DNA from: an uncultured Thermoleophilia bacterium
GTDB lineage: Bacteria > Actinomycetota > Thermoleophilia > UBA2241
Length of the DNA stretch: 64,000 nucleotides
Direction of reading: 5' to 3'
Assembly: GCA_963702475.1 (NCBI GenBank)
Contig: CAVPCT010000003.1
Location: 352,001-416,000, forward strand
The notes beneath the pieces are model-generated. The model did no database searches and was not told the origin of the DNA. It worked only from the letters and a program-made list of their open reading frames with translations. The position numbers and the translations under genes were made by a program. Shown here in pieces: positions 3,481 to 55,105 of this stretch (positions are counted from its first letter, which is position 1; each line of letters starts with the position of its first letter).

Positions 3481-4914
3481 TCAGGGGTCGCAGAGGGTGG
3501 CGGCGTCCTTCTCGAAGCGCATCTTGCACATGGCGTACTCCTCCGGCACCGTGATCGGGTAGTCGCCGTCGAAGCAGGCTCGGCAGAACTGGTTACGAGG
3601 CAGGCCGGTGCTGGCCTGCAGGCCGTCGAGCGTGAGGTAGTGCAGGCTGGTGGCTCCGACCTTGCGGCGGATGTCGTCCACGCTCATGTTGGCGGCGATG
3701 AGCTCCGCCCGCGTCGCCATGTCGATGCCGTAGAAGCAGGGCCACTGGATCGGCGGAGAGCTGATGCGCAGGTGCACCTCGGCGGCCCCGGCGCTGAACA
3801 GCATCTCGACCAGCTTGCTGGTGGTGTTGCCGCGCACGATGGAGTCATCGACCACCACCAGCCGCTTCCCCCGGATGACCTCGGTCAGCGGGTTGAGCTT
3901 CATGCGGATGCCCACCTGCCGCAGCTGGTCGTCGGGCTGGATGAACGTGCGGTGCACGTAGCGGTTCTTGATGAGGCCCTCGGTGTAGGGGATGCCGGAG
4001 GCTGAGGCGTAGCCGATGGCGGCCGGCATGCCCGTGTCGGGCACGGGGATGACGAGGTCGGCCTCGACCGGGGCCTCCATGGCCAGGTGCCTGCCCATCT
4101 CCTGGCGTGCGATGTGCAGGGTCCTGCCGGCCATCACGCTGTCGGGCCGCGCGAAGTAGATGAACTCGAAGATGCACAGGGCCGGGCGCGAGCCCTCGAG
4201 CTCCACGCGCTCGCTGCGCAGGCCGTGTTCCTTGTCGGCGATGACGATCTCGCCGGGCTGGATCTCGCGCACGAAGTGGGCGCCGATGATGTTGAGCCCG
4301 GCCGTCTCGCTGCTGATGACGGGGTGCCCCTCGTACTCGCCAAGACAGAGCGGGCGCACGCCGTAGGGGTCGCGGAAGCCGACCAGGGAGTCGCCGCTCA
4401 TCACGGCCGCCGAGAAGGCGCCGCGGATCTTGGCCACTGCAGTGCGCACGGCGCTGAGCAGGTCGCTGTCGGCCTCGTGGGCGATGAGCGCCGTGATGAC
4501 CTCGGTGTCGGTGGTCCCCGAGAACTTGACGCCCTGGCGCATGAGCTCGTCGCGCAGCTCCGTCGTGTTGACGAGGTTGCCGTTGTGGCCCAGGGCGATG
4601 ACGTCGCCGTTGCGGCTGCGCACCAGCGGCTGGGAGTTGGCCCAGTGGCTCGAGCCCGTGGTGCTGTAGCGCACGTGACCGATGGCGTGCTGACCGCTGA
4701 GGCTCTGCAGCATCTGCTCGTTGAACACCTGGCTGACCAGACCGAGGTCCTTGATGACGGTGATCTGGCCGTCGTCGCTCACGGCGATGCCCGCGCTTTC
4801 CTGCCCGCGGTGTTGCAGCGCGTAAAGCCCGAAGAAGGTGAGGCGCGCGACGTCGTGACCCGGCGCGTGGATGCCGAAGACGCCACAGCTGTCATGGAGG
4901 TGGTCGTTGTGCAC
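3481..4914 (-). CDS. purF: Amidophosphoribosyltransferase
   Basis: CGVFG after a short propeptide, QHRGQESAG, GHVRYST, VVVDDSIVRG PRPP motif, Fe-S cysteines. Confidence 0.97.
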   Translation of the reverse strand: MHNDHLHDSCGVFGIHAPGHDVARLTFFGLYALQHRGQESAGIAVSDDGQITVIKDLGLVSQVFNEQMLQSLSGQHAIGHVRYSTTGSSHWANSQPLVRSRNGDVIALGHNGNLVNTTELRDELMRQGVKFSGTTDTEVITALIAHEADSDLLSAVRTAVAKIRGAFSAAVMSGDSLVGFRDPYGVRPLCLGEYEGHPVISSETAGLNIIGAHFVREIQPGEIVIADKEHGLRSERVELEGSRPALCIFEFIYFARPDSVMAGRTLHIARQEMGRHLAMEAPVEADLVIPVPDTGMPAAIGYASASGIPYTEGLIKNRYVHRTFIQPDDQLRQVGIRMKLNPLTEVIRGKRLVVVDDSIVRGNTTSKLVEMLFSAGAAEVHLRISSPPIQWPCFYGIDMATRAELIAANMSVDDIRRKVGATSLHYLTLDGLQASTGLPRNQFCRACFDGDYPITVPEEYAMCKMRFEKDAATLCDP

Positions 4915-4931
4915 GGTGCTCGTTCTGATGG

Positions 4932-7228
<2,297 letters not shown>

Positions 7229-7232
<4 letters not shown>

Positions 7233-7957
7233 GCCGTCACCTCCGCGCCGCGCAGGGCGTCGATCATGGACTGGAAGAACACGCGCCCGTCGGCGCCGCC
7301 GGCCATCCACTCCTCCACCGAGTTCTCCGGGTGCGGCATCATGCCGAACACGTTGCGGGTGTCGTTGCAGACGCCGGCGATGTCGTCAAGGGAGCCGTTG
7401 GGGTTGGCGCCCGGGGCGCGGTCACCCTCAGCGTTGACGTACCGCACCACGACCTGGTCGTTGGCCACGAGCTGCTCGAACGTCGCCGGGTCGACCGTGT
7501 AGTTGCCCTCGTTGTGCTTGACGACGATGCGCAGCACGTCGCCCTTCGCGCACGCGCGGGTGAACGGCGTGTCCGCCGTCTCGACGCGCAGGTTGACGTA
7601 CTTGCAGACGAACTTGAGGCCCGTGTTCCTGATGAGGCCGCCGGGCAGGAGGCCGGCCTCGATGAGGATCTGGAAGCCGTTGCAGATGCCCATCACGAGG
7701 CCGCCGTCGGCGGCGAACGAGGTGATGGACTCCATGATGGGGCTGAAGCGGGCGATGGCGCCGCAGCGCAGGTAGTCGCCGTAGCTGAACCCGCCGGGGA
7801 TGACGATGCCGTCGACGCCCTTGAGGTCGGTGTCCTTGTGCCACAGGTACTCGGCGGTGACGCCGGGGAAGGTCTCGAGGCCGTGGTGCGTGTCGCCGTC
7901 GGTGTTGATGCCGGGGAAGACGACCACGCCCAGGCGCACGGGGGAAGCGGAGCCCAT
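7229..7957 (-). CDS. purQ: Phosphoribosylformylglycinamidine synthase subunit PurQ (glutaminase)
   Basis: PGGFSYGDYLR, GICNGFQ, MMPHPE motifs. Confidence 0.97.
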
Positions 7958-7964
7958 GCCTGCC

Positions 7965-8216
7965 TCACCCCTCGGTGATCTCGAAGGTGTAGTCCTCGAT
8001 GATCGGGTTGCTGAGCAGCTTGCGGCACATGTCGTCGACCTGGGCGCGGGCGGCCCCTTCGGTGAGGCCCGCGCCCTCGATGCTCAGGTCGATGATCTTG
8101 CCGACCCGCACCCCGCTCACGCCCTCGAAGCCGAGGTTGGGGAGCGAGCGCTCGACGGCCGCGCCCTGGGGGTCGAGGATGCCTTGTTTGGGCGTGACGT
8201 AGACGCGGACGTTCAT
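7965..8216 (-). CDS. purS: Phosphoribosylformylglycinamidine synthase subunit PurS
   Basis: MNVRVYVTPKQGILDPQG...LLSNPIIEDY; directly upstream of purQ. Confidence 0.95.
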   Translation of the reverse strand: MNVRVYVTPKQGILDPQGAAVERSLPNLGFEGVSGVRVGKIIDLSIEGAGLTEGAARAQVDDMCRKLLSNPIIEDYTFEITEG

Positions 8217-30950: not shown

Positions 30951-32420
30951 GTGAAACGCAATCTGTTCGCGGGCCAGCGCCGCACCAGCGGCATCGGCCT
31001 CACCATGTTCAGCGACGACGAGCTCCGTATGATCCACCGCGGCACGCTCGTCGTCCTCGAGCGCACCGGCATCTGGGTGGAGCTGGACGAGGCGCTCGAC
31101 ATCTTCAGCGACGGCGGCTGCAGGGTCGACCGGGAGTCGCACATCGTCAGGATCCCGCCGCACATCGTGGAGGACTGCATCGCCGCCGCCCCCGAGGCCG
31201 TGGCGCTGTGCGGCCGCGACCCGAGGAACGACATCCTGCTCGAGCCCGGGCGCGTGGGCTTCAGCAACTTCGGCGAGGGCATCAAGGTCATCGATCCCTA
31301 CACCGGTGAGCTGCGGCCGTCCACCAAGAAGGACCTCGGCCAGATCGCCCGCCTGGTCGACGCGCTGCCCGACATCGACGTGTTCGAGATGGCCGTGGTC
31401 AGCGGCGACAAGCCGCCCGAGACGTTCTCGCTGCACAACCACGAGGCGGCGATCGTCAATCAGACGAAGCCCATCTCCGGCGGGGCCCAGGATGGCCGCG
31501 CCGTGCACACCACCGTCGAGATGCTGGCGGCCGTGCAGGGCAGCGAGGATGCGGTGCGCGAGCGCCCCATGATGGTCATGGGCACCTGCCCGGTGAGCCC
31601 GCTCAAGCTGGTCAAGGACTTCTGCGAGATCGTCATCGAGGCGGCGCGCGTCGGGCTGCCGTCCTGCGTGCTCAGCATGGCGATGGCCGGCGGCTCGTCG
31701 CCGGTGACGCTGGCCGGGACGCTCGTGACGCACAACGCCGAGGTGCTGGCCGGCCTCGTGCTCGCGCAGCTGACCGAGCGCGGCAGCAAGGTCCTGTACG
31801 GCTCGTCCACCACGGCCATGGACCTGCGGCTGGTCACGGCCTCCGTCGGCTCCCCCGAGTGCGCTCTCATCAGCGCCGGAGCGGCCGCGCTCGCGAAGCA
31901 GTACCGCCTGCCCAGCTACATCGCCGGGATGTAGGGCGACGGCAAGACCAGTGACGTGCAGACCGGTCACGAGAAGACCCTCACGGCTCTGATGGCGGCG
32001 TTGGCAGGGACCAACCTCATCTACGGGTCGGGCATGATCGAGTCGGGCGTCACCTTCGACTTCGCGCAGCTGGTCATCGACGACGAGATCGCGCGCATGG
32101 TCAAGCAGGTGGTCGGCGGCGTGCGCGTGGACGACGAGACGCTGGCGGTGGACGACATCGCCTCGGTCGGCTCGTTCGGCGACTTCCTCAGCCTGGACGC
32201 GACCATGGCGCACATGCGCGAGCAGTCGCAGCCCCGGCTCATGGACAGGCGCGTGCGCGAGGAGTGGGAAGAGGCGGGGAGCCCCGGCATGTACGAGCGC
32301 GCCCACGCCAGGGCACGCGACATCCTCGAGAACCACAGGCCGGAGCCGCTGCCCGACGACGTGCGGCAGCGGGTCCGCGACATCGTCGACCGTGAGGACA
32401 GGGCGGCCGGCAGGGCCTGA
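30951..32420 (+). CDS. mttB: Trimethylamine:corrinoid methyltransferase MttB, predicted pyrrolysine at the in-frame TAG 31932-31934 (codon 328; 489 aa)
   Basis: RBS GAGGAGGAAGG; MKRNLFAG...FSDDEL..IH..TL.VL, SPL, MAMAGGSSPVTLAGTLVTHNAEVLAG, GSPE..LIS, AGM*GDGK...GHEKTLT, G.N.IYGSGM; frame continues after TAG. Confidence 0.95.
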
Positions 32421-37430: not shown

Positions 37431-38123
37431 TCAGTTCCCCGAGAGCACCCAGTCCTTGGCGGCTGCCAGGTGCACCTTGAGGGTGTACCCTGCGCCGCCG
37501 TCGGTGACGGAGTACGCGAAGTCGCCGTTGCCCGTCCCCTGCGCCATGGGCGCGTGCGTCCAGGGGTTCTGCGGCCACACGGGCACGCCGGGCTGCAGGC
37601 CGACCGCGCCGGCGGCGCCCAGGTCGGCCCCGGCCGGCGGCGTGCCGCCGTGGCCGGCCCTCCACGCCTCGACATAGCTCTGCAGCAGCGCCAGGCCGGC
37701 CTTGCTCGCGTCGTCGCGGTCGGTCTTGAGCCACGCCGGGACGCCCCCGGTGAGCTTGTAGTCGCCGCTCGACAGGTGGCCGATGAGCGTGTAGCCGGTG
37801 CCGTCGGCTTTCAATCTGTAGGTGTAGGTGCCCCTGCTGGTGCCCGGAGCCATGGTCTTGCCGGTCCACGGGTTGCCCGGCCACACCGGCGCCACCAGGG
37901 CGCCGCCCTTCTTGACGTCGGCGACAGCGGGGTAGGTGAAGCCGTCCTTCTCCGCCTGGGTGTTGACGTAGCCCTGCAACAGCAGGACGTTCATCTGCAC
38001 CTGCTTGTCGACGAAGCTCGGGGCGGCGGCGGCCTGCTGCGGCAGCGCCGCGGCCGTGAAGAAGGAGAGCGCCGCGGCCGCGAGCACCGCGGCGCCGCGC
38101 CTCAGCGGGACATGTTTCGGCAT
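37431..38123 (-). CDS. Secreted protein with two pilin/GspG-head-like WPxNP domains
   Basis: RR-containing signal ending AAA; repeats WPGNPWTG..M..G...G.YTY and WPQNPWT..PM..G...G.FAY. Confidence 0.75.
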   Translation of the reverse strand: MPKHVPLRRGAAVLAAAALSFFTAAALPQQAAAAPSFVDKQVQMNVLLLQGYVNTQAEKDGFTYPAVADVKKGGALVAPVWPGNPWTGKTMAPGTSRGTYTYRLKADGTGYTLIGHLSSGDYKLTGGVPAWLKTDRDDASKAGLALLQSYVEAWRAGHGGTPPAGADLGAAGAVGLQPGVPVWPQNPWTHAPMAQGTGNGDFAYSVTDGGAGYTLKVHLAAAKDWVLSGN

Positions 38124-38259
38124 GGGTGCCTCCTCGAAACGCCTCGGAGTGTCGTCTCAGTGTCTCCGCCCCGCCTCTCCGCGGTCAACCGCGGCGGCGA
38201 CCTGTGCCATGGTGTGCGGTCCGGTGCCGGGCTACTGCATTTGGTCTAGGATGCGGGGC

Positions 38260-39648
38260 ATGGAACCCCGCTTCCCCACCCGCATGGGCGACGGCTTCAT
38301 GGTCGAGAGGACGCGCAGCGAGCTGCGCGCCGACATCGAGGACGCGACGCGTGAGGCGGCGCGCAAGGCCAAGGCGCCGCCACTTGCCTCCGACGAGCAA
38401 GAACACCTGCTCGACATCTACGCCTCTCGCGCGGCCTTCACGGCCGTCGACATCGGCGACCAGGTCGTGCTGAGCTGCGATGGCGGCGGCAGCAAGATGA
38501 CCGGCACCGACCTGCTCGACCTCCTGGAGAGCGAACAGCGTCTGGGCCAGGACATCCTCGAGCTGTGGCACATCGAGTACAGCTACAAGGCCATCAAGAC
38601 GATCCTGCCGTTCCAGCAGCAGGTGATGCAGAACGTCCAGCTGATGCTCACCGCTCCGGTGCAGTACGGCGCCCAGCCCAACCTCGCCTTCTACAGCCGG
38701 CCGGACGGGCCGTGCGAGAACTGGTTCGAGCTGCTGCCGCGTGGCGACGTGGCGGGCGCCCGCGCGGCCGTCGAGGAGGCCATGGAGTACGCCACGCAGG
38801 ACTTCGTGTACGTGGCGGACGGCATGATCGAGGCCGGCGCCGACGGCGTGGACTTCGACACCACCGGAGGCGCCGGCGACGCCGACCTCTTCAGCACCCT
38901 CCGCGCCGTGAAGCACGTCCGCGAGCGGTACCCGGAGGCCGGCGTGGAGCTCGGCATGGCCGGAGAGTTCGTGATCGGCGTGCACGGCGAGCTCGCCTGG
39001 GACGGCCGGCGGCTCGCCGGCCTCTGGCCCAAGGGCCAGCTCGAGGTCGCGCAGGACGCCGGCGCCACCATCTTCGGACCGGCCGTCAACATCCGCACCG
39101 GCCGGTCCTGCTGCTGGAACACGGCGTACTCGCTCACCGTCATCAAGCCGTGTATGGAGGTAGCGCGCATCCCCGTCCACGTGAACGTGGGCGAAGGGGT
39201 CTGCGGCGTGCCCGTGAACGGCTACCCGCCCGAGGACGCGTCGTCACGGGCGGCCAAGGCGCACGTGGAGATCCTCGGCTGCGACGGCTTGTAGGTCGGC
39301 TCGGGTGACTCCAGGGGCATGGACGTCACCCACGCGCTCGCCGCGGGCATGGGCGGCATGCGCACGGCCGGAGACCTGGTCGCGCGCCTGCAGATGTCCC
39401 GGGGCATGCGCCTCACGGAGGCGAAACGGTACGTCGCGGAACGGCTGGCTTGCTCGGTCGGTGATCTGAGCGACAGCTACGCGATGGAGCAGCTGCGCGG
39501 CGAGCTGGGTCTGGGGCGGATCCTCGACCACTCGAACCTGCACCCCGGCAAGCCGAACGCGCTGGCGGCGAAGTTCCGTATCGCTGAACTGCTCGGCCTG
39601 CGGATCAACTCGGTGGAGCGCTTTCGGGAGCTGGCGGGGCTGGCGTGA
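38260..39648 (+). CDS. mtbB: Dimethylamine:corrinoid methyltransferase MtbB, predicted pyrrolysine at the in-frame TAG 39292-39294 (codon 345; 462 aa)
   Basis: TRMGDG, EL.HIEYSYK, YGAQPNL..Y..PDGP.EN, GADGVDFDTTG.AGDAD, GMAGE.V.G.HG.L..DG..LAGLWP, FGP.VN, DGL*VGSGD..GM, GMR.AGDLVAR, INS. Confidence 0.95.
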
Positions 39649-40120
39649 CGGCGGCGCGGCGGGCGGCGCGCATGGCCGCGCCGACGGTCAGCGAGGCCAG
39701 CCCGATCGGCACCAGCAGGATGCCCGTGAGCAACGTCAGGTAGAGGCCCAGACCTGGCCGGTACAGGTCGATCATCGAATCGGCCGCCGCGACCGACTCC
39801 ACCGCGTATACCGCGCCGGCAGCCACGACGACGAGGCTCAACGCGATCGTGACGCGCCGCGGCCCCAGCACGAGCAGCAGGACGGCCGCAGCCAGCGCCG
39901 CGAGCGCGGCCGCCAGCACCGGTGGCCCCCACTGCGTCTGCAGCACGCCGACCACCTCGGGCGGCTTGCTGAGGCCGAAGTTCACGGACTGCTCCGTGTA
40001 GTGGTTGGCCCACGGCAGGAAGAGCGAGACCACGCCGACGGCGCCGCCGGCGATCATCAGGGCGGCGTAGCCGACCCAGTCGGCGCGGGTGAAGCGGTGT
40101 CTGCGGCGCGCGAGCTTCAT
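39605..40120 (-). CDS. Hypothetical multi-pass membrane protein
   Basis: RBS GGAGGAGAAGG; SLFLPW and PGLGLYL motifs, 4 TM helices; overlaps the mtbB 3' end convergently. Confidence 0.7.
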   Translation of the reverse strand: MKLARRRHRFTRADWVGYAALMIAGGAVGVVSLFLPWANHYTEQSVNFGLSKPPEVVGVLQTQWGPPVLAAALAALAAAVLLLVLGPRRVTIALSLVVVAAGAVYAVESVAAADSMIDLYRPGLGLYLTLLTGILLVPIGLASLTVGAAMRAARRAAVTPAPPAPESAPPS

Positions 40121-40251: not shown

Positions 40252-40629
40252 ATGAGACGATCCGTGATCTGCCTGGCCGCCGCGCTGGCCGTGCTCGCGC
40301 TCGCGGCGGCACTCGGCGCCTGTGGCTCCGAGGACATCCAGACACCGACCGACACCATCGACATCGCCAAGGACCAGGCCGTCAAGGCGCAGATCATGAT
40401 GATCAAGACGGGCGTGACTGCCTACGTCCAGCTGAACGGCGTGGCGCCTGCGAACGCGTCCGCGGAGACGCTCGGGAGCTTCGTGCAGCCCTGGCCGGAC
40501 AACCCCTTCACGCAGGCGCCGATGAAGCAGGGCAAGGAGCCGGGCGACATCGCCTATGCGCCCGGCGCCGGCACGGCCTACACCCTCGGCGTGGTGGTGT
40601 CCGACGGCAGCGTGTACAACGCGCCGTGA
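40252..40629 (+). CDS. Lipoprotein with pilin/GspG-head-like WPxNP domain
   Basis: Lipobox LGAC; KDQAVKAQI..I..GV.AY...WPDNPFT..PM. Confidence 0.78.
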   Translation: MRRSVICLAAALAVLALAAALGACGSEDIQTPTDTIDIAKDQAVKAQIMMIKTGVTAYVQLNGVAPANASAETLGSFVQPWPDNPFTQAPMKQGKEPGDIAYAPGAGTAYTLGVVVSDGSVYNAP

Positions 40630-40875: not shown

Positions 40876-42252
40876 TCACGCCCCTATGAGGCGCTTCACG
40901 TAGGTCGCCCGCCTGCTGGGCCGGCCGCTGGCCAGCTCGGTCTCGTCGGCGCTGCTCATGGCCCGCAACGCGGCGTTGACCCCGAGCCAGCGCAGCGGTT
41001 CGCGCTCCCAGAGCGGCGACCGGTGGTCTGCCCAGGGCAGGTCCGTCAGGGGGGTCCTCCGGTCCAGGATCAGGTCGCGAAGCGTGCGGCCGGCGAGGTT
41101 GGTGGTCGCCACGCCGTCACCGATGTAGCCGCCTGCCCACGCCATACCGGTGCCGCGGTCGAGACCCACCGAGGAGTACCAGTCGCGCGGCGCCGCGACG
41201 GCGCCGCCCCAGTGGTGCGTCACGCGCACGCCGCTGAGCGCCGGGAAGAGCTCGGCGAGCAGCTCCGTGAGGTGCCGGCGCACGTGCTCGTCCCGCTCGA
41301 AGCGTTCGTTCAGCCGCGAGCCGGCGTGGTAGGGGGCGCCGCGCCCACCCAGCGCGATGCGGCCGTCGTCGGTGCGTGCCGCATAGTAGATGAGGTAGCG
41401 GAAGTCGCCGAACACCTCGCGTCCGGCCCAGCCGATCTCGTCCCATGCCTGGGCCGGGAGCGGCTCGGTGCCGATCATCAGCGAGTAGATCGGCACTACC
41501 GTGCGCGCGCACCCGGGGAGCTGCGGCGTGAACGCCTCGGTGGCGCGGACGATCACCTCGGCGCGCACCGCGCCGCACGGCGTGTGGGCGCACCGCGGCT
41601 CCAGGCGCGTGACCGGGGTGCGCTCGTAGATGCGCACCCCCCGTCGCTCGACGGCCGCGGCCAGGCCGCGCGCCAGTCTGGCCGGGTCCACGCACGCCGC
41701 GTGCGGCGAGTAGCCGGCGCCCAGGCAGCCGGCCACGCGCACGCGTGCGCGCGCTTCGGCCGCCGCGAGCTGACGGTAGTCCTCCTCGCCGAAGCCCCAT
41801 GACCGCTCCCACGCCACGGCGTCGCGCAGGCGCAGCAGCTGTACCGGCGTGGCCGCCAGGTCGAGGGTCCCGCCGCGGTGGAAACGCGCCTCGATGCCCT
41901 CCTCGGCGACCACGCGACCGATCTCGTCCACGGTCGCGTGCAGGGCGCGCTGCTGATCGACGACCTTCTGGCGCCCGTGACGCCGAGCGGCCTTCTCGCG
42001 AGAGCCGGGGAACGTGGTGTGGCACCAGCCGCCGTTGCGCCCCGAGGCTCCGAACCCGGCGATCTCCCGCTCCAGCACCGCGATGCGCAGGTGGGGGTCG
42101 GCCCCGGCCAGGTAGTACGCCGTCCACAGTCCCGTGAACCCGGCCCCCACGATGGCCACGTCGACGTCCAGGTCCCCCGGCAGGGACGGCCGTGGCGTGA
42201 GGCTCTCTTCCAGACCGTCGAGCCAGAGACTGCGTGCGCGGTAGTCGGTCAA
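40876..42252 (-). CDS. FAD-dependent amine oxidoreductase (DAO/PuuB-like)
   Basis: TTG start with RBS GAGGAG; GAGFTGLWTAY, GASGRNGGW, GGY.GDGV. Confidence 0.88.
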   Translation of the reverse strand: MTDYRARSLWLDGLEESLTPRPSLPGDLDVDVAIVGAGFTGLWTAYYLAGADPHLRIAVLEREIAGFGASGRNGGWCHTTFPGSREKAARRHGRQKVVDQQRALHATVDEIGRVVAEEGIEARFHRGGTLDLAATPVQLLRLRDAVAWERSWGFGEEDYRQLAAAEARARVRVAGCLGAGYSPHAACVDPARLARGLAAAVERRGVRIYERTPVTRLEPRCAHTPCGAVRAEVIVRATEAFTPQLPGCARTVVPIYSLMIGTEPLPAQAWDEIGWAGREVFGDFRYLIYYAARTDDGRIALGGRGAPYHAGSRLNERFERDEHVRRHLTELLAELFPALSGVRVTHHWGGAVAAPRDWYSSVGLDRGTGMAWAGGYIGDGVATTNLAGRTLRDLILDRRTPLTDLPWADHRSPLWEREPLRWLGVNAALRAMSSADETELASGRPSRRATYVKRLIGA

Positions 42253-47805: not shown

Positions 47806-49107
47806 CTAGAACTCCAGGTCCTCCAGCCGGGCGAAGATCACGTCGCGCCCGGCCTTGTACTGGTCCGGGTCGAGCGCCGCGTCCACGTCGGCCGCCGTGA
47901 GCACCGCCATGGCCTCGGCGTCGACCTTCACCACGTCGCCGAAGTCGACGCCCTCGCGCCAGGCCTTCATGGCGGAGTCCTGGACCACGCGGTAGGCGTC
48001 CTCGCGCAGCATGCCCTTGTCCACGAGTACGAGCAGCAGCGTGCCGCTGAACACCAGGCGGTGGCTGATGGCGAAGTTGGCCAGCATGCGCTGCGGGTCG
48101 ACCACGAGGTTGTCCATGAGCTTCGTGAACTTCTGCAGCATGTAGTCGAGCAGGATGCAGCTGTCGGGCAGCACGATGCGCTCGGCGGAGCTGTGGCTGA
48201 TGTCGCGCTCGTGCCACAGGGCGTTGTTCTCCATCCCGACCAGGGCGTTGCCGCGCAGCACGCGGGCGCAGCCGGCCATACGCTCGCTGAGGATGGGGTT
48301 GCGCTTGTGGGGCATGGCCGAGGACCCTTTCTGTCCCTTGCCGAACGCCTCTTCGGCCTCCCGCACCTCGGTGCGCTGCAGGTGGCGGATCTCCGTGGCG
48401 AACTTCTCGATGCTCGACCCGGTCACGGCGAGCGCGTTCAGGAAGGTGGCGTGGCGGTCGCGCTGCACAACCTGGTTGCTGATGGGCTCACGGCCGATGT
48501 CGAGCATCTCGCAGACGAGGTCCTCCACCCTCGGGTCGATGTTGTTGTAGGCGCCCACGGCGCCGCTGATCTTGCCGACGGCGGCCATGCTGGTGGCGAG
48601 GCGCAGGCGCTTGAGGTCGCGGCTGACCTCGAAGGCCCACATGCCGAGCTTCATGCCGAAGGTGATGGGCTCGGCGTGGATGCCGTGGGTACGGCCCACC
48701 TGCACGGCGTCGCGGAACTCGAAGGCGCGCCGCTTGAGCACCTGCCCCAGCGCGACGAGGTCGCGCTCCAGCAGGCGCCCGGCGCGCTTGATCTGCAGCG
48801 CCAGCCCGGTATCGAGCATGTCGCTGCTCGTCATGCCGTAGTGCACGTACTTGCTGGCGTCGCCCACGTATTCCGCGACGTTGGTGAGGAAGGCGATCAC
48901 GTCGTGGTTGGTGGTCGCCTCGATCTCCTGCACGCGGGCTACGTCGAACGACGCCTTGGCGACGATCTCCTTCACGGCGGCGTGCGGGACCTTGCCGAGC
49001 TCGTTCCAGGCCTTGACCGCGGCGATCTCCACGTCCAGCCAGGCCTGCATCTTGGCCTCTTCGGTCCAGACCGCGCCCATCTCCGGGAGCGTGTAGCGCT
49101 CGATCAT
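47806..49107 (-). CDS. purB: Adenylosuccinate lyase
   Basis: MIERYT, HDVIAF, GRTHG.HAEP, GSSAMPHKRNP, HERDISHSS; ends in TAG. Confidence 0.97.
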   Translation of the reverse strand: MIERYTLPEMGAVWTEEAKMQAWLDVEIAAVKAWNELGKVPHAAVKEIVAKASFDVARVQEIEATTNHDVIAFLTNVAEYVGDASKYVHYGMTSSDMLDTGLALQIKRAGRLLERDLVALGQVLKRRAFEFRDAVQVGRTHGIHAEPITFGMKLGMWAFEVSRDLKRLRLATSMAAVGKISGAVGAYNNIDPRVEDLVCEMLDIGREPISNQVVQRDRHATFLNALAVTGSSIEKFATEIRHLQRTEVREAEEAFGKGQKGSSAMPHKRNPILSERMAGCARVLRGNALVGMENNALWHERDISHSSAERIVLPDSCILLDYMLQKFTKLMDNLVVDPQRMLANFAISHRLVFSGTLLLVLVDKGMLREDAYRVVQDSAMKAWREGVDFGDVVKVDAEAMAVLTAADVDAALDPDQYKAGRDVIFARLEDLEF

Positions 49108-49251
49108 GACGTGCCTCCGTGGTCGTGACGCCGCCGATTCTCTCACACGTCTTGGGCCGGCCGGCGGAGCCGTTTCCGGCAGCGCGCCGTCCGGCCGGGA
49201 GTAGACTTGCAGGTGAGGCGCATCGGGGAGGCACCGAGACCGGAGGAGGGG

Positions 49252-49539
49252 ATGATGGCGACCGACGAGGAACTGCGCAACCACGCGATCAAGGTGATCA
49301 AGAAGAAGCGGGAGTTCTGGGGCCACGTGGCCGCCTACGTCATCGTCAACGCCTTTCTGGTGGTGGTCTGGTACTTCTTCACCGGGGCGGGCTACTTCTG
49401 GCCCGGCTGGGTGATGGCCGGCTGGGGCATCGGCCTGGCCTTCAACGCCTGGGACGCGTACGGCCGTGGAAATCGGCCCATCAGCGAGGACGAGATCCAG
49501 CGGGAGATGCAGCGCCAGAAGGGGTCCGGCGCCTCCTGA
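49252..49539 (+). CDS. 2TM-domain protein
   Basis: F..H..AY.IVN, YFWP.W...GWGIGL, E.EI.REM. Confidence 0.85.
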   Translation: MMATDEELRNHAIKVIKKKREFWGHVAAYVIVNAFLVVVWYFFTGAGYFWPGWVMAGWGIGLAFNAWDAYGRGNRPISEDEIQREMQRQKGSGAS

Positions 49540-49545
49540 GAAGAG

Positions 49546-49594
49546 CGAGCGGCCGAGGCCGGGGCGGCGCTGCCGCCCCGGCCTCGGCCGCTCG
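49546..49594. terminator. 23-bp inverted repeat, probable bidirectional terminator
   Basis: CGAGCGGCCGAGGCCGGGGCGGC-gct-GCCGCCCCGGCCTCGGCCGCTCG between convergent genes. Confidence 0.7.
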
Positions 49595-49635
49595 AGGCTC
49601 CGTCCCCGCACAGCGGGTTCCGCCGCCCGCCGGTG

Positions 49636-50013
49636 TCAGCGCATGGCGATGGCCTCGATCTCCACGCGCAGGTCCTTGGGCAGGCGCGCCACCTCCACGG
49701 TCGAGCGCGCCGGGTAGGGCTCGCTGAAGAACTCGGCGTACACTTCGTTGACCGCGCCGAAGTCGTCCATGTCCTTCAGGAAGATCGTCGTCTTGACCAC
49801 GTTGTCGAGGGTCAGGCCCGCCGCGCCCAGGGTCGCGACCATGTTCTCGAGCGCCTTGCGGGTCTGCTCTTTGGGCGTGGGGCCGACGATCCTGCCGCTC
49901 GAGTCCAGGGCGATCTGGCCGGAGACGAAGACGAAGCCGCCCGCTCCCAGCGCCGCCGAGTACGGTCCCACGGCGGGCGCGCCCTCCGGTGAAGCGTACG
50001 CTTGCTTGTCCAT
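49636..50013 (-). CDS. ridA: RidA/YjgF-family deaminase
   Basis: P.AVGPYS, SGQI, VVKTTIFL, F..VN.VY..FF, PARS.V, VEIEAIA. Confidence 0.92.
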   Translation of the reverse strand: MDKQAYASPEGAPAVGPYSAALGAGGFVFVSGQIALDSSGRIVGPTPKEQTRKALENMVATLGAAGLTLDNVVKTTIFLKDMDDFGAVNEVYAEFFSEPYPARSTVEVARLPKDLRVEIEAIAMR

Positions 50014-50058
50014 GCCGGCTCCTCTCGTCCACGCTGTGCGCGGTGGTGGGTGTGTCGG

Positions 50059-50436
50059 TCAGTAGCGTACCGCGACGGCTGCGACCTGCAGCAGCGCGCC
50101 GCCCGGCAGCCAGGCGGCGCCGACGACGCTGCGCGCCGGGAAGGGCGCGCTGAAACACTCGCGGAGGACGTCGTCGACCGCCGTCAGGTCGTCAGGGTCG
50201 GTGAGGTACACGGTGAGCTCGGCCACGCTCTCGAGACCGAGGCCGGTGGCGCGGAGTTGGTGGGCGAGGTGGGCCAGAGCCCGGCGCGCCTGCCCGGCGG
50301 CGTCGCCGCCGGGCTCCTCGCCGGGCCCGAACGGCAGCTGTGCCGAGACGAACACGAGGCGACCGGCCGAGACCGCCGCCGAGAAGGGCCCGCGCGGCGG
50401 CGGCACGAGCGCAGAGGTGAAGCCGTGGACCACCAT
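50059..50436 (-). CDS. Divergent Rid-family protein
   Basis: GPFS, SAQLP, PFPARSVVG, LP.GA..QVAAVA. Confidence 0.8.
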   Translation of the reverse strand: MVVHGFTSALVPPPRGPFSAAVSAGRLVFVSAQLPFGPGEEPGGDAAGQARRALAHLAHQLRATGLGLESVAELTVYLTDPDDLTAVDDVLRECFSAPFPARSVVGAAWLPGGALLQVAAVAVRY

Positions 50437-50549
50437 GCTCGAAGTGTCCCCGCGACGAGCGAAGCTCACGCCGCGGGGCGCAGGGACTGCGCGCGTGGGT
50501 CCGCGCGCGGCTACGGGCGCTGCCCGGCCGCCGCGGTCGCGGCCCGCGC

Positions 50550-50999
50550 TCAGACGTCCAGGATCTTCGCCGCCAGAATCGCGGCGTTGCGGGCGCCGTT
50601 GATGGCAACGCACGCCACGGGCACGCCGGGCGGCATCTGCACGATGCTGAGCAGCGAGTCCAGGCCGCCCAGGTCGCTCGTCTTGATCGGCACGCCGATC
50701 ACGGGGACGTTGGTGTAGGCGGCCAGCACGCCCGGCAGCGCCGCGGCCTTGCCGGCGCCACCGATGAGCACCTTGATGCCGCGCGACTGGGCCGTCTTCG
50801 CGTAGTGCGCTACCTTGTCCGGGTCGCGGTGGGCGGAGAGCACGCTGATCTCGTACTTGATCTTGCGCTCGTCGAGCTCCTTGCAGGCCCCCTCCATGAC
50901 CTCGCGATCACTCTCGCTGCCCATGACGATGCCCACCAGCACGGGCTCCAGCTCGATGCCCTGCAGAAGGGCCTCGACCTCGGTACTCGTCCTCTCCAC
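50550..50999 (-). CDS. purE: PurE (N5-CAIR mutase/AIR carboxylase)
   Basis: [33 protein letters not shown]. Confidence 0.95.
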
Positions 51000-51056
51000 T
51001 GCTCGGCTCCTGTCTCGTGGGTGTTCGGGGTACGCGGCGCGCGGGTGTGGTGACTA

Positions 51057-52376
51057 TCAGTCGGCCGTCCCGAGATGCGGGAACAGATCCAGCGTGCCGG
51101 CCTGTGCCCTGACGGCCCGCTCGGCGATGTCGGGCCGCACCTGCATGCCGTCGAAGGCGATCCTTGAGATGCCCTCATAGGCGCGCGCCCGGGCGGCGGG
51201 GAAGCCGTCGCCGAGCGCGCTGACCGCGAGCACGCGGCCGCCGGCGGTGACCACCTGACCGTCGTGCAGAGCCGTGCCGGCGTGGTAGACGCTCACGCCT
51301 TCCAGGCCGGCCGCCGCGTCCAGCCCGGTGATGACATCGCCCTTGTGGCTGCTTGCCGGGTAACCGGCCGAGGCCATCACGACCGTGACGCACTCCTGCG
51401 GCTTCCAGGCGGCGGAGACGCCGGCGAGCTCGCCGGCCGCCGCCGCCGCGCACAGCTCCAGCAGGTCGCTGTCCAGGCGTGGCAGCACCGCCTGCGTCTC
51501 GGGGTCACCGAAGCGGCAGTTGAACTCCAGCACCTTGACGCCGTCGGCAGTGACGATGAGGCCGGCGTACATGACGCCCTTGTAGGCGATGCCGCGCGCC
51601 TTGAGCGCGGCCATGGTTGGCTCCACGACCGTCGCCATGGCCGCGTCGATCGCCCTCTGCTCGAAGCCCGGCACGGGGCAGTAGCTGCCCATGCCGCCGG
51701 TATTGGGGCCCTGGTCGCCGGCGAAGATGCGCTTGTAGTCCTGCGCCGGCGCCAGCGGCACGGCGTTGACGCCGTCGCAGAGCACCAGCAGCGAGACCTC
51801 CGAGCCCTGCAGGAACTCCTCCACGATGACCACGTCGCCGGCGGCGCCGAAGGCGCGGTCGACGAAACAGCTCTCGACCGCGGCCCGCGCCGCCTCGTAG
51901 TCCTCGCAGATCATGACGCCCTTGCCGGCGGCGAGGCCGTCGGCCTTCACCACGAGCGGGTACGTGTCTTGCAGCGTGAGGCACTCGAGGGCCGTCTCCA
52001 GGCTCTCGTGCCGCCGGTACAGCCCCGTCACCACGCCACCCTCGCGCATGATCTCCTTGGCGAAGACCTTGCTGCCCTCGAGCCGGGCGCCATCGATGTT
52101 CGGCCCGAACACGGCCAGCCCGTGCTCCTCGAAGAGGTCGGTGAGGCCGGCGACCAGCGGCGCCTCCGGGCCGACCACGGTGAGGTCGACCTGCTCGCGG
52201 CTGGCGAAGTCGAGCAACGCCGGCAGGTCCTCGGCGCTGAGGGGTATGTTGTCGGCCTCGGCGGCGGTGCCGGCGTTGCCCGGCGCCACGAAGATGCGCT
52301 CTGCAAGCGGGGACTGGGCGAACGAGTGGACGAGGGCGTGCTCCCGGCCACCGCCGCCGACAACGAGCACGCGCAT
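51057..52376 (-). CDS. purD: Phosphoribosylamine--glycine ligase
   Basis: GGREHAL, GPEAPL, KADGLAAGKGV, GPNTGGMG, EFNCRFGDPE. Confidence 0.97.
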   Translation of the reverse strand: MRVLVVGGGGREHALVHSFAQSPLAERIFVAPGNAGTAAEADNIPLSAEDLPALLDFASREQVDLTVVGPEAPLVAGLTDLFEEHGLAVFGPNIDGARLEGSKVFAKEIMREGGVVTGLYRRHESLETALECLTLQDTYPLVVKADGLAAGKGVMICEDYEAARAAVESCFVDRAFGAAGDVVIVEEFLQGSEVSLLVLCDGVNAVPLAPAQDYKRIFAGDQGPNTGGMGSYCPVPGFEQRAIDAAMATVVEPTMAALKARGIAYKGVMYAGLIVTADGVKVLEFNCRFGDPETQAVLPRLDSDLLELCAAAAAGELAGVSAAWKPQECVTVVMASAGYPASSHKGDVITGLDAAAGLEGVSVYHAGTALHDGQVVTAGGRVLAVSALGDGFPAARARAYEGISRIAFDGMQVRPDIAERAVRAQAGTLDLFPHLGTAD

Positions 52377-52529
52377 AGACGCCTCCCGTGTGTGTCTGAA
52401 GTGGAGCCGGGCCGGGCAGGCTACGCCGCCGCCCCCGGCAGTACCGTGCGAGTCTACCCGCGCGCGGCGTGCTTGGGGAGGGGCAGCCGGCGCGTCACGC
52501 GCCGAGCTGCCCGGCCGGGAAGCGGCGCC

Positions 52530-55105
<2,576 letters not shown>

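Follow-up and report, generated by a model that had tools for sequence, protein, structure and literature searches.

An MtbB-family methyltransferase gene with a probable pyrrolysine codon in a Thermoleophilia bacterium

The window analyzed here is a 64,000-nt stretch of DNA (C3:352001-416000) from the genome of an uncultured Thermoleophilia bacterium. At 38260-39648 on its forward strand lies a gene of the MtbB methyltransferase family, which forms one frame of 462 codons followed by a terminal TGA. Codon 345, a TAG at 39292-39294, is its sole internal stop, and the residues around it read GCDGL*VGSGDSRGM. Under genetic code table 11, the same frame is split by this TAG into two open reading frames (ORFs; 38005-39294 and 39319-39648). 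An earlier interpretation made from the letters alone (the sequence-only reading) had described these ORFs as one frame parted only by the TAG, and translation bears this out. The context is reproduced exactly, and the N-terminal RMGDG block and the C-terminal GDLVAR and INS blocks that it had called intact are all present. The gene start at 38260 matches those of the orthologs (MEA[KR]IPTRMGDG), and a further in-frame ATG is found at 38251. The copy in the window is an intact gene for a methylamine methyltransferase, and its in-frame TAG almost certainly codes for pyrrolysine (Pyl). It is very likely that the product is a full-length, Pyl-containing methyltransferase of the MtbB (dimethylamine:corrinoid) family.

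For family profile searches, lysine (K) was put in place of Pyl. The resulting protein matches PF09505 (Dimeth_Pyl) with 509 bits (E 1.3e-152; cut-off 25 bits), and residues 5-457 align to profile positions 3-462 of 463. It also exceeds the cut-off of TIGR02368, the [dimethylamine--corrinoid protein] Co-methyltransferase equivalog (389.9 versus 369.1 bits), in agreement with the family assignment of the sequence-only reading. A search of solved structures with the MtbB sequence matched no chain in the PDB. The AlphaFold2 model, built with 27 aligned sequences, has a predicted local distance difference test (pLDDT) score of 89.8 and a predicted template modeling (pTM) score of 0.92, and residue 345 lies in strand E343-346 of the barrel. 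Foldseek searches with this model returned only generic triosephosphate isomerase (TIM) barrels, the best being BHMT (1umy, E 8e-6). In a full VIA-align scan, the barrels of methyl-transfer enzymes were placed at the top, with MetH (1q7m; Z 18.2, root-mean-square deviation 3.3, 248 residues aligned) followed by Methanosarcina MtaA (4ay7; Z 17.7) and then by UroD and BHMT; model residues 65-401 were aligned. From this model we predict a product with a TIM-barrel fold, whose last strand holds the Pyl residue.

Several lines of evidence place the TAG at the Pyl column of the family. There are seven full-length PF09505 genes in the genome, each with exactly one TAG, and all seven TAGs fall in one column of a MAFFT alignment, inside DG[LF]-TAG-[VA]G.GD. 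The other six copies are 43-59% identical to the window copy. The Rfam model PYLIS_2 opens with a UAG that lands on the TAG of the window, and its consensus (UAG AUa GGu guc GGc Gac CCu) has the frame O-I-G-V-G-D-P (with O for Pyl), which is the motif that the sequence-only reading had given for Methanosarcina. The placement proposed there coincides with both the PYLIS_2 UAG and the TAG column of the six paralogs, a match that rests on Rfam and NCBIfam models and not on a Methanosarcina protein alignment. A protein search limited to residues 340-462 gave six proteins, all of them without a name. A scan with one genome per species gave 58 related loci at 80-89% identity. TAG is present in 51 of the 51 loci that span the site, and neither TAA nor TGA occurs there in any of them. 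Of these loci, 41 were read in frame (among 48 that are near-full-length) and 10 by motif (seven with assembly frame breaks and three partial); the remaining seven of the 58 end short of the site. The VGSGDSRGM motif is conserved in all 41 orthologs read in frame. Of the proteins predicted for the top 120 database relatives, nearly all are 336-346 residues long, indicating that gene callers cut them at the same TAG.

That the TAG stems from a sense codon (TGG, CAG, or AAG, for example) misread in sequencing or assembly has almost no probability and can be excluded, because all 51 independent assemblies carry the TAG. Frame breaks in seven of the related loci do show that errors exist in some assemblies, and two relatives have a tryptophan (W) in the Pyl column. 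Against an error stand also the TAG column shared by the seven paralogs of this genome and the other genomes of the class, in which, among the PF09505 matches listed, every match covering >400 profile positions has one TAG. Contigs from two public runs span the site, namely X2 (39095-39338, two differences) and X18 from an RNA library (39210-39327, six differences). Among the rows listed, neither has a change at 39292-39294, which says little about the base call or about expression. The largest share of sampled words in any public run is 0.37. The two proteins with W (..YDGLWVGSGDSRGM..), P0058 and P0048, are about 80% identical to the product over the C-terminal part. Their starts fall at an internal Met, and in P0058 an internal stretch is missing as well; an error, decay of the gene, or derivation of a form without Pyl could each account for them. 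Two other full-length MtbB relatives of 468 amino acids, P0102 and P0124 (47% and 42% identical), have Q in the Pyl column, probably through gene callers using a code that reads TAG as Q.

The coding sequence past the TAG is constrained. Among 32 ungapped sequences, nonsynonymous differences per codon pair amount to 0.096 after the TAG versus 0.118 before it, and synonymous differences to 0.207 versus 0.183. Purifying selection acts on the downstream stretch, and no less strongly than on the upstream part. Moreover, the family-invariant residues G349, D350, and G353 are located between the TAG and the next ATG, such that they would stay untranslated if the gene were split at the TAG. Both observations argue against the TAG being a stop, a reading that would make the locus a pseudogene or a truncated gene with a 344-residue product and perhaps a separately started 109-residue ORF from 39319, which is how table 11 and public gene callers divide it.

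The 1.14-Mb contig that contains the window (C3) also carries a full set of pyl genes, 250-270 kb away (Table 1). The pylT, pylSn/pylSc, and pylBCD genes implied by the sequence-only reading are therefore all found, and on the same contig as the methyltransferase gene. Adjacent pylB, pylC, and pylD are followed by pylT, an opposite-strand gene with a Germane/Gmad2 domain, pylSn (1.1 kb on), and a corrinoid protein gene. The pylSc gene lies 15 kb beyond pylSn, and another mtbB, itself preceded by a TetR/BetI-type regulator, converges on it. The pylT product shows three hallmarks of tRNA-Pyl, namely an anticodon stem of 6 bp, a variable loop of 3 nt, and a small D loop. The pylD gene is itself closed by TAG. 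A tRNA-Sec (tca) gene is also present at C3:167171-167268, and the genome would thus make use of the 21st amino acid in addition to the 22nd.

A conserved mRNA structure lies directly on the internal UAG. The Rfam PYLIS_2 model (RF02509) matches at all 100 model positions with 56.0 bits (gathering score 36). When 32 orthologs were folded by RNAalifold in 111-nt sliding windows, the one starting 3 nt before the TAG had the lowest energy of 61 (-47.8 kcal/mol; mean -14.7, sd 9.0) and was also the richest in pairs with compensatory changes (five). On this structure 98.8% of the cells pair, compared with 95.5% in shuffles (0/500 as high), and the covariation score is 0.091 compared with 0.037 (0/500); with partners shifted by 1-3 columns, just 29-40% of the cells pair. 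Shuffles of whole codon columns, which preserve conservation and composition, gave z = -6.2 (0/200 as low). Among 23 windows tiled over the gene, the two covering the post-TAG stretch had z of -6.65 and -5.6, and the other 21 were between -1.9 and +1.9. The sequences in these statistics are related, and the counts are not independent events. The 3' hairpin of PYLIS_2 (codons for A-G-D-L-V) is formed, with compensatory changes among the orthologs at three pairs. Folding of the single 105-nt sequence past the TAG is unremarkable (-54.9 versus a mean of -45.2, sd 7.5). Conservation at synonymous sites was rejected as a sign of RNA structure, since the post-TAG dip (0.14-0.16; gene mean 0.223) is outdone by codons 91-125 (0.08-0.09).

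For other groups of MtbB paralogs, the corresponding z values are -2.6 (n = 7) and -4.6 and -6.0 (n = 23). In paralog group B (n = 23; loci L084-L106), a control window far from the TAG (columns 300-410) has z of -6.5, equal in strength to the signal after the TAG. The idea that all Pyl genes share a structure after the UAG is unsupported for MttB, in which two groups show no special signal (z -1.4 and -2.1; controls to -3.3). This agrees with the part available of a 2013 study, according to which the mtmB and mtbB regions, unlike mttB, can be given a canonical structure; that part reports no functional test of any mtbB PYLIS.

By the proposed mechanism, the UAG at codon 345 would be read by the CUA anticodon of a tRNA-Pyl that is charged by a split synthetase consisting of PylSn and PylSc, and the Pyl would be made from lysine by PylB, PylC, and PylD. 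The PYLIS_2 structure that starts at the UAG probably favors insertion over termination. By analogy with the Methanosarcina enzymes, the Pyl may bind and activate a methylamine, and the methyl group may then be accepted by a corrinoid protein at its Co(I). For the acceptor beyond the corrinoid in bacteria, the sections seen of one paper suggest a pterin rather than coenzyme M (PMC2933860).

Several observations weigh against a full-length, Pyl-containing MtbB, some of them bearing on decoding and others on the identity of this copy. With respect to decoding, this genome does not avoid TAG: in a crude gene call, 485 of 3551 genes end with it (13.7%; TGA 2961, TAA 105). Moreover, 24 of 31 orthologs end in TAG themselves and seven in TGA (loci L020-L069, codon 462), and the next in-frame stop lies 9-190 codons past their terminal stop. 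With terminal TAG this frequent, UAG must also terminate, and the code is ambiguous rather than reassigned; the same ortholog mRNA has one UAG to read through and another to end at. A code in which every TAG means Pyl was rejected, as most of the genes closed by TAG have no coding continuation. Coding-like in-frame continuation was seen for 81 of 485 TAG-ending genes versus 263 of 3066 ending in TGA or TAA, a measure confounded by neighboring genes in the same frame. As for the RNA element, the first (5') hairpin of PYLIS_2 is not formed by the window sequence, which has non-standard pairs there; in its place, the ortholog group has an invariant hairpin of its own (GGUGACUCC/GGACGUCACC). The PYLIS models also span coding sequence and score homology in part, and PYLIS_3 matches MttB homologs without TAG as well. 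The genome bin has an estimated contamination of 6.49%, which matters little because gene and decoding system are on one 1.14-Mb contig and cannot have been brought together by a binning error. Finally, the insertion of Pyl, its catalytic role, the corrinoid partner, and the substrate are points that we infer.

Termination at codon 345 gains something from these observations, in that TAG is a common terminator that closes most of the orthologs, and four other MtbB copies elsewhere in the genome seem to be broken or cut. It is nevertheless very improbable, given the purifying selection on the downstream third, the untranslated invariant residues that it would entail, the occurrence of TAG at the site in every related locus spanning it and never of TAA or TGA, the complete pyl system, and the conserved RNA element on the TAG. 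Decoding of codon 345 as Pyl remains our preferred reading, with the structure on the internal UAG as a candidate discriminator between insertion and termination.

The second set of opposing observations concerns what distinguishes this copy from its paralogs. The window copy scores lowest of the seven on TIGR02368 (389.9 bits, 21 over the cut-off, versus 543.5, 502.4, 468.4, 431.5, 426.9, and 396.9 for the others) and also on PF09505 (505 bits in this paralog comparison, versus 523-653). The Pyl is followed by GDSR in this copy, in contrast to GDP-x or GDI-x in the other six. The 64-kb window contains no corrinoid-protein gene: all 28 B12-binding_2 matches of the genome lie outside it, and no B12 domain was found in its 61 scanned genes. 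An adjacent MtbC-type corrinoid gene is the usual context and not a strict requirement. Because the window copy is the most divergent paralog and has no corrinoid gene beside it, its substrate is uncertain, and dimethylamine, as judged from sequence, is best taken as the family name. Of the earlier identification of the gene as a dimethylamine methyltransferase, the MtbB identity therefore stands and the substrate is the weaker part.

The ortholog group is nevertheless well conserved, also in its gene surroundings (Table 1). A Pyl-type MttB gene lies upstream in the window and, read with TAG as Pyl, scores 692.8 bits against TIGR02369 (cut-off 525), with a Rfam PYLIS_3 match at 31932-32031 (60.8 bits; gathering score 38). 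In the relatives, the MttB and mtbB orthologs are 0-2 kb apart on one contig, compared with 6 kb here, where an ECF (extracytoplasmic function) sigma factor gene upstream of mtbB and unnamed genes lie between them. Downstream, the FAD (flavin adenine dinucleotide)-dependent oxidoreductase of the DAO family matches no NCBIfam family at cut-off and is, on sequence and position, a conserved neighbor of this mtbB copy. Purine biosynthesis genes (purF, purL, purQ, purS, purB, purE, purD, and purA by Pfam) at 3481-8216 and 47806-53813 flank the two Pyl genes, which are thus embedded in a housekeeping region rather than in a methylamine island.

Table 1. Features of the window and pyrrolysine genes of the same contig. 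Positions without a prefix are those of the window; the prefix C3 marks positions of the contig. Bit scores are given against the family cut-off.
Feature	Position	Strand	Basis or remark
Pyl-type MttB (trimethylamine methyltransferase family)	30951-32420	+	TAG 31932-31934; PF06253 on both halves, one frame
MtbB-family (Dimeth_Pyl) methyltransferase gene	38260-39648	+	PF09505, TIGR02368; read through one TAG; orthologs share start Met
Proposed pyrrolysine codon, TAG, codon 345	39292-39294	+	Paralog column, related loci, PYLIS_2 positions 1-3
Conserved mRNA structure directly 3' of UAG	39292-39399	+	Rfam PYLIS_2 39292-39391; consensus fold 39289-39399
Small protein	39605-40120	-	Beside mtbB ortholog in 35/58 loci
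121-amino-acid protein	40264-40629		Beside mtbB ortholog in 50/58 loci
FAD-dependent oxidoreductase (DAO family)	40876-42252	-	PF01266 E 2e-56; in 40/58 loci, median 75% identity
pylB	C3:637885-638913		TIGR03910 438.1 bits vs 348.2
pylC	C3:638955-640109		TIGR03909 323.8 bits (summed) vs 248.3
pylD	C3:640193-640975		TIGR03911 209.1 bits vs 150.05
tRNA-Pyl(cta), pylT	C3:641046-641118		ARAGORN; 6-bp anticodon stem, 3-nt variable loop, small D loop
pylSn	C3:642228-642485		TIGR03912 126.2 bits vs 51.15
pylSc	C3:657647-658372	-	TIGR02367 314.6 bits vs 178.15

These features raise the possibility, itself compatible with Pyl decoding, that a Pyl enzyme is made and that this group of paralogs has switched to a methylated amine other than dimethylamine, with its corrinoid protein encoded elsewhere. 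The low scores on both profiles and the 43-59% identity to the other copies point in that direction, as does the retention of VGSGDSRGM, in place of GDP-x-GM or GDI-x-GM, in every ortholog read in frame. The group also spans 58 loci at 80-89% identity with a synteny of its own, involving the Pyl-type MttB and the DAO-family oxidoreductase, and the window copy has neither an adjacent corrinoid gene nor a permease gene, unlike a canonical mtbB on contig C9, which has a corrinoid gene directly downstream. On the other hand, the curated dimethylamine equivalog cut-off is still passed, and several MtbB isozymes for one substrate are retained in Methanosarcina too, according to the sections seen of PMC2933860. 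Specificity residues are beyond comparison, as no MtbB structure in the PDB is matched by sequence. A changed substrate is accordingly doubtful as an account of this copy, although clearly more credible than a stop at codon 345.

Pyl enzymes are numerous elsewhere in the genome. They comprise seven intact MtbB genes, 13 near-full-length MttB genes with one TAG each, and one TAG-bearing MtmB gene. The MttB family has 75 matches in total, most of them without TAG, and MtmB has four further homologs without TAG; these relatives presumably act on quaternary or other amines. PYLIS_2 scores over its gathering score 11 times in the genome, always at an MtbB TAG. PYLIS_3 has 18 matches, some of them in the MttB homologs without TAG, and PYLIS_1 has a single match, at the MtmB TAG and below the gathering score. 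Four further MtbB copies (C7:37364-38577, C4:76-1430, C5:362180-363436, and C6:6123-6362) appear frame-split or cut at contig ends, one of them with an in-frame TGA, and each keeps a PYLIS_2 match; they could be assembly frameshifts or decaying copies. The canonical mtbB mentioned above belongs to a cluster at C9:298776-320370 (loci L138 and L139) that looks like a canonical methylamine locus. This cluster opens with a GAF histidine kinase and a LuxR-type response regulator, followed by mtmB(TAG), corrinoid, permease, and Usp genes; it continues with mtbB(TAG), corrinoid, and SSF symporter genes, a gene for a PAS protein, and then mttB(TAG), corrinoid, permease, and Usp genes.

The related loci come from records titled mostly as "Thermoleophilia bacterium" metagenome-assembled genomes (MAGs), with some "Actinomycetota"/"Actinomycetes" and one "Deltaproteobacteria", in line with the actinobacterial origin proposed in the sequence-only reading. 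PylSc over the cut-off is found in 60 of 301 sampled genomes of the class, including 51 of 56 from the bacterium's own family, nine of 55 from a second family, and none from other families. Of the 121 class genomes searched with PF09505, 21 have matches at E <= 1e-30 (the source genome, 18 of 20 others from its family, two of 20 from the second family, and none of 80 from elsewhere), with 1-13 matches per genome. One genome of the same genus (G110, 93% completeness) has three full-length TAG-bearing MtbB genes and no PylSc over the cut-off (best E 1.6e-5); its PylSc is either missing from the bin or lost.

The view of the sequence-only reading that a Pyl-containing MtbB is rare outside methanogens and a few Firmicutes/Desulfobacterota does not hold for this lineage, in which the trait is common, and its presence in Actinobacteriota is already in print. 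In the passages seen, Ellenbogen et al. (2023, mSystems, PMC10805028) reported Pyl-type mtbB and mttB genes, together with their expression, for MAGs of Actinobacteriota recovered from a permafrost mire. The phylum and the two amber-bearing gene families are the same as here, and the genes were recognized there by a truncated gene call. The text on this trait in those passages consists of one sentence and a methods note, without pyl genes, the paralog expansion, a PYLIS region, or the spread in Thermoleophilia. The truncated proteins are named dimethylamine--corrinoid methyltransferase by the Joint Genome Institute (JGI). A literature search found no report joining Thermoleophilia and pyrrolysine in substance, and the portion available of PMC13695967 makes no mention of Pyl in Actinomycetota. 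The gene is a confirmation and detailing of a trait already known for Actinobacteriota, rather than a discovery. The details added here comprise the complete pyl set on the same contig, statistical support for a PYLIS-type structure in mtbB, the frequent terminal UAG in the orthologs, and a divergent paralog without a corrinoid gene.

These results show that, among bacteria, Pyl decoding extends beyond a few Firmicutes and Deltaproteobacteria; within one family of Thermoleophilia, it is near universal and coupled to a large expansion of Pyl enzymes. Standard annotation cuts the gene in two, as it does in hundreds of relatives, such that methylamine use by a common actinobacterial lineage of soils and sediments is under-counted. 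This bears on which organisms compete with methanogens for methylamines. The orthologs that also end in TAG provide a natural test case, with UAG read as Pyl and as stop within the same mRNA. A broader and more speculative proposal, to which we give a low probability, is that the MtbB clade with the GDSR motif and no corrinoid gene is a neofunctionalized Pyl enzyme. It would then have arisen as part of an extensive radiation of Pyl enzymes within an actinobacterial family widespread in soils and sediments, in which a conserved mRNA structure on the UAG, and not TAG avoidance, would tell insertion from termination.

Among known systems, the closest in family terms are MtbB1-3 of Methanosarcina barkeri, which belong to the same PF09505 and TIGR02368 families and have one UAG at the Pyl column, within DG-x-O-[IV]G-x-GD. 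They likewise occur as several paralogs per genome, with a PYLIS_2-type region after the UAG. The present gene differs from them in its high-GC bacterial host, which is no methanogen, in the lack of an adjacent mtbC-like gene, and in having GDSR instead of GDP. The Pyl systems of Firmicutes and Deltaproteobacteria, such as those of Desulfitobacterium hafniense, Acetohalobium arabaticum, and the Olavius symbiont, likewise have split pylSn/pylSc and combine pyl genes with amber-bearing methylamine methyltransferases and nearby corrinoid proteins, as described in the sections seen of PMC2933860. The gene order pylScBCDSn given there as typical of Gram-positives differs from the pylB-pylC-pylD-pylT arrangement with pylSn and a distant pylSc found here, and the phylum differs as well. 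In the abundance of Pyl genes per genome, the present bacterium is comparable to the symbiont of the Olavius worm, for which many such genes are described in the part available of PMC1976440.

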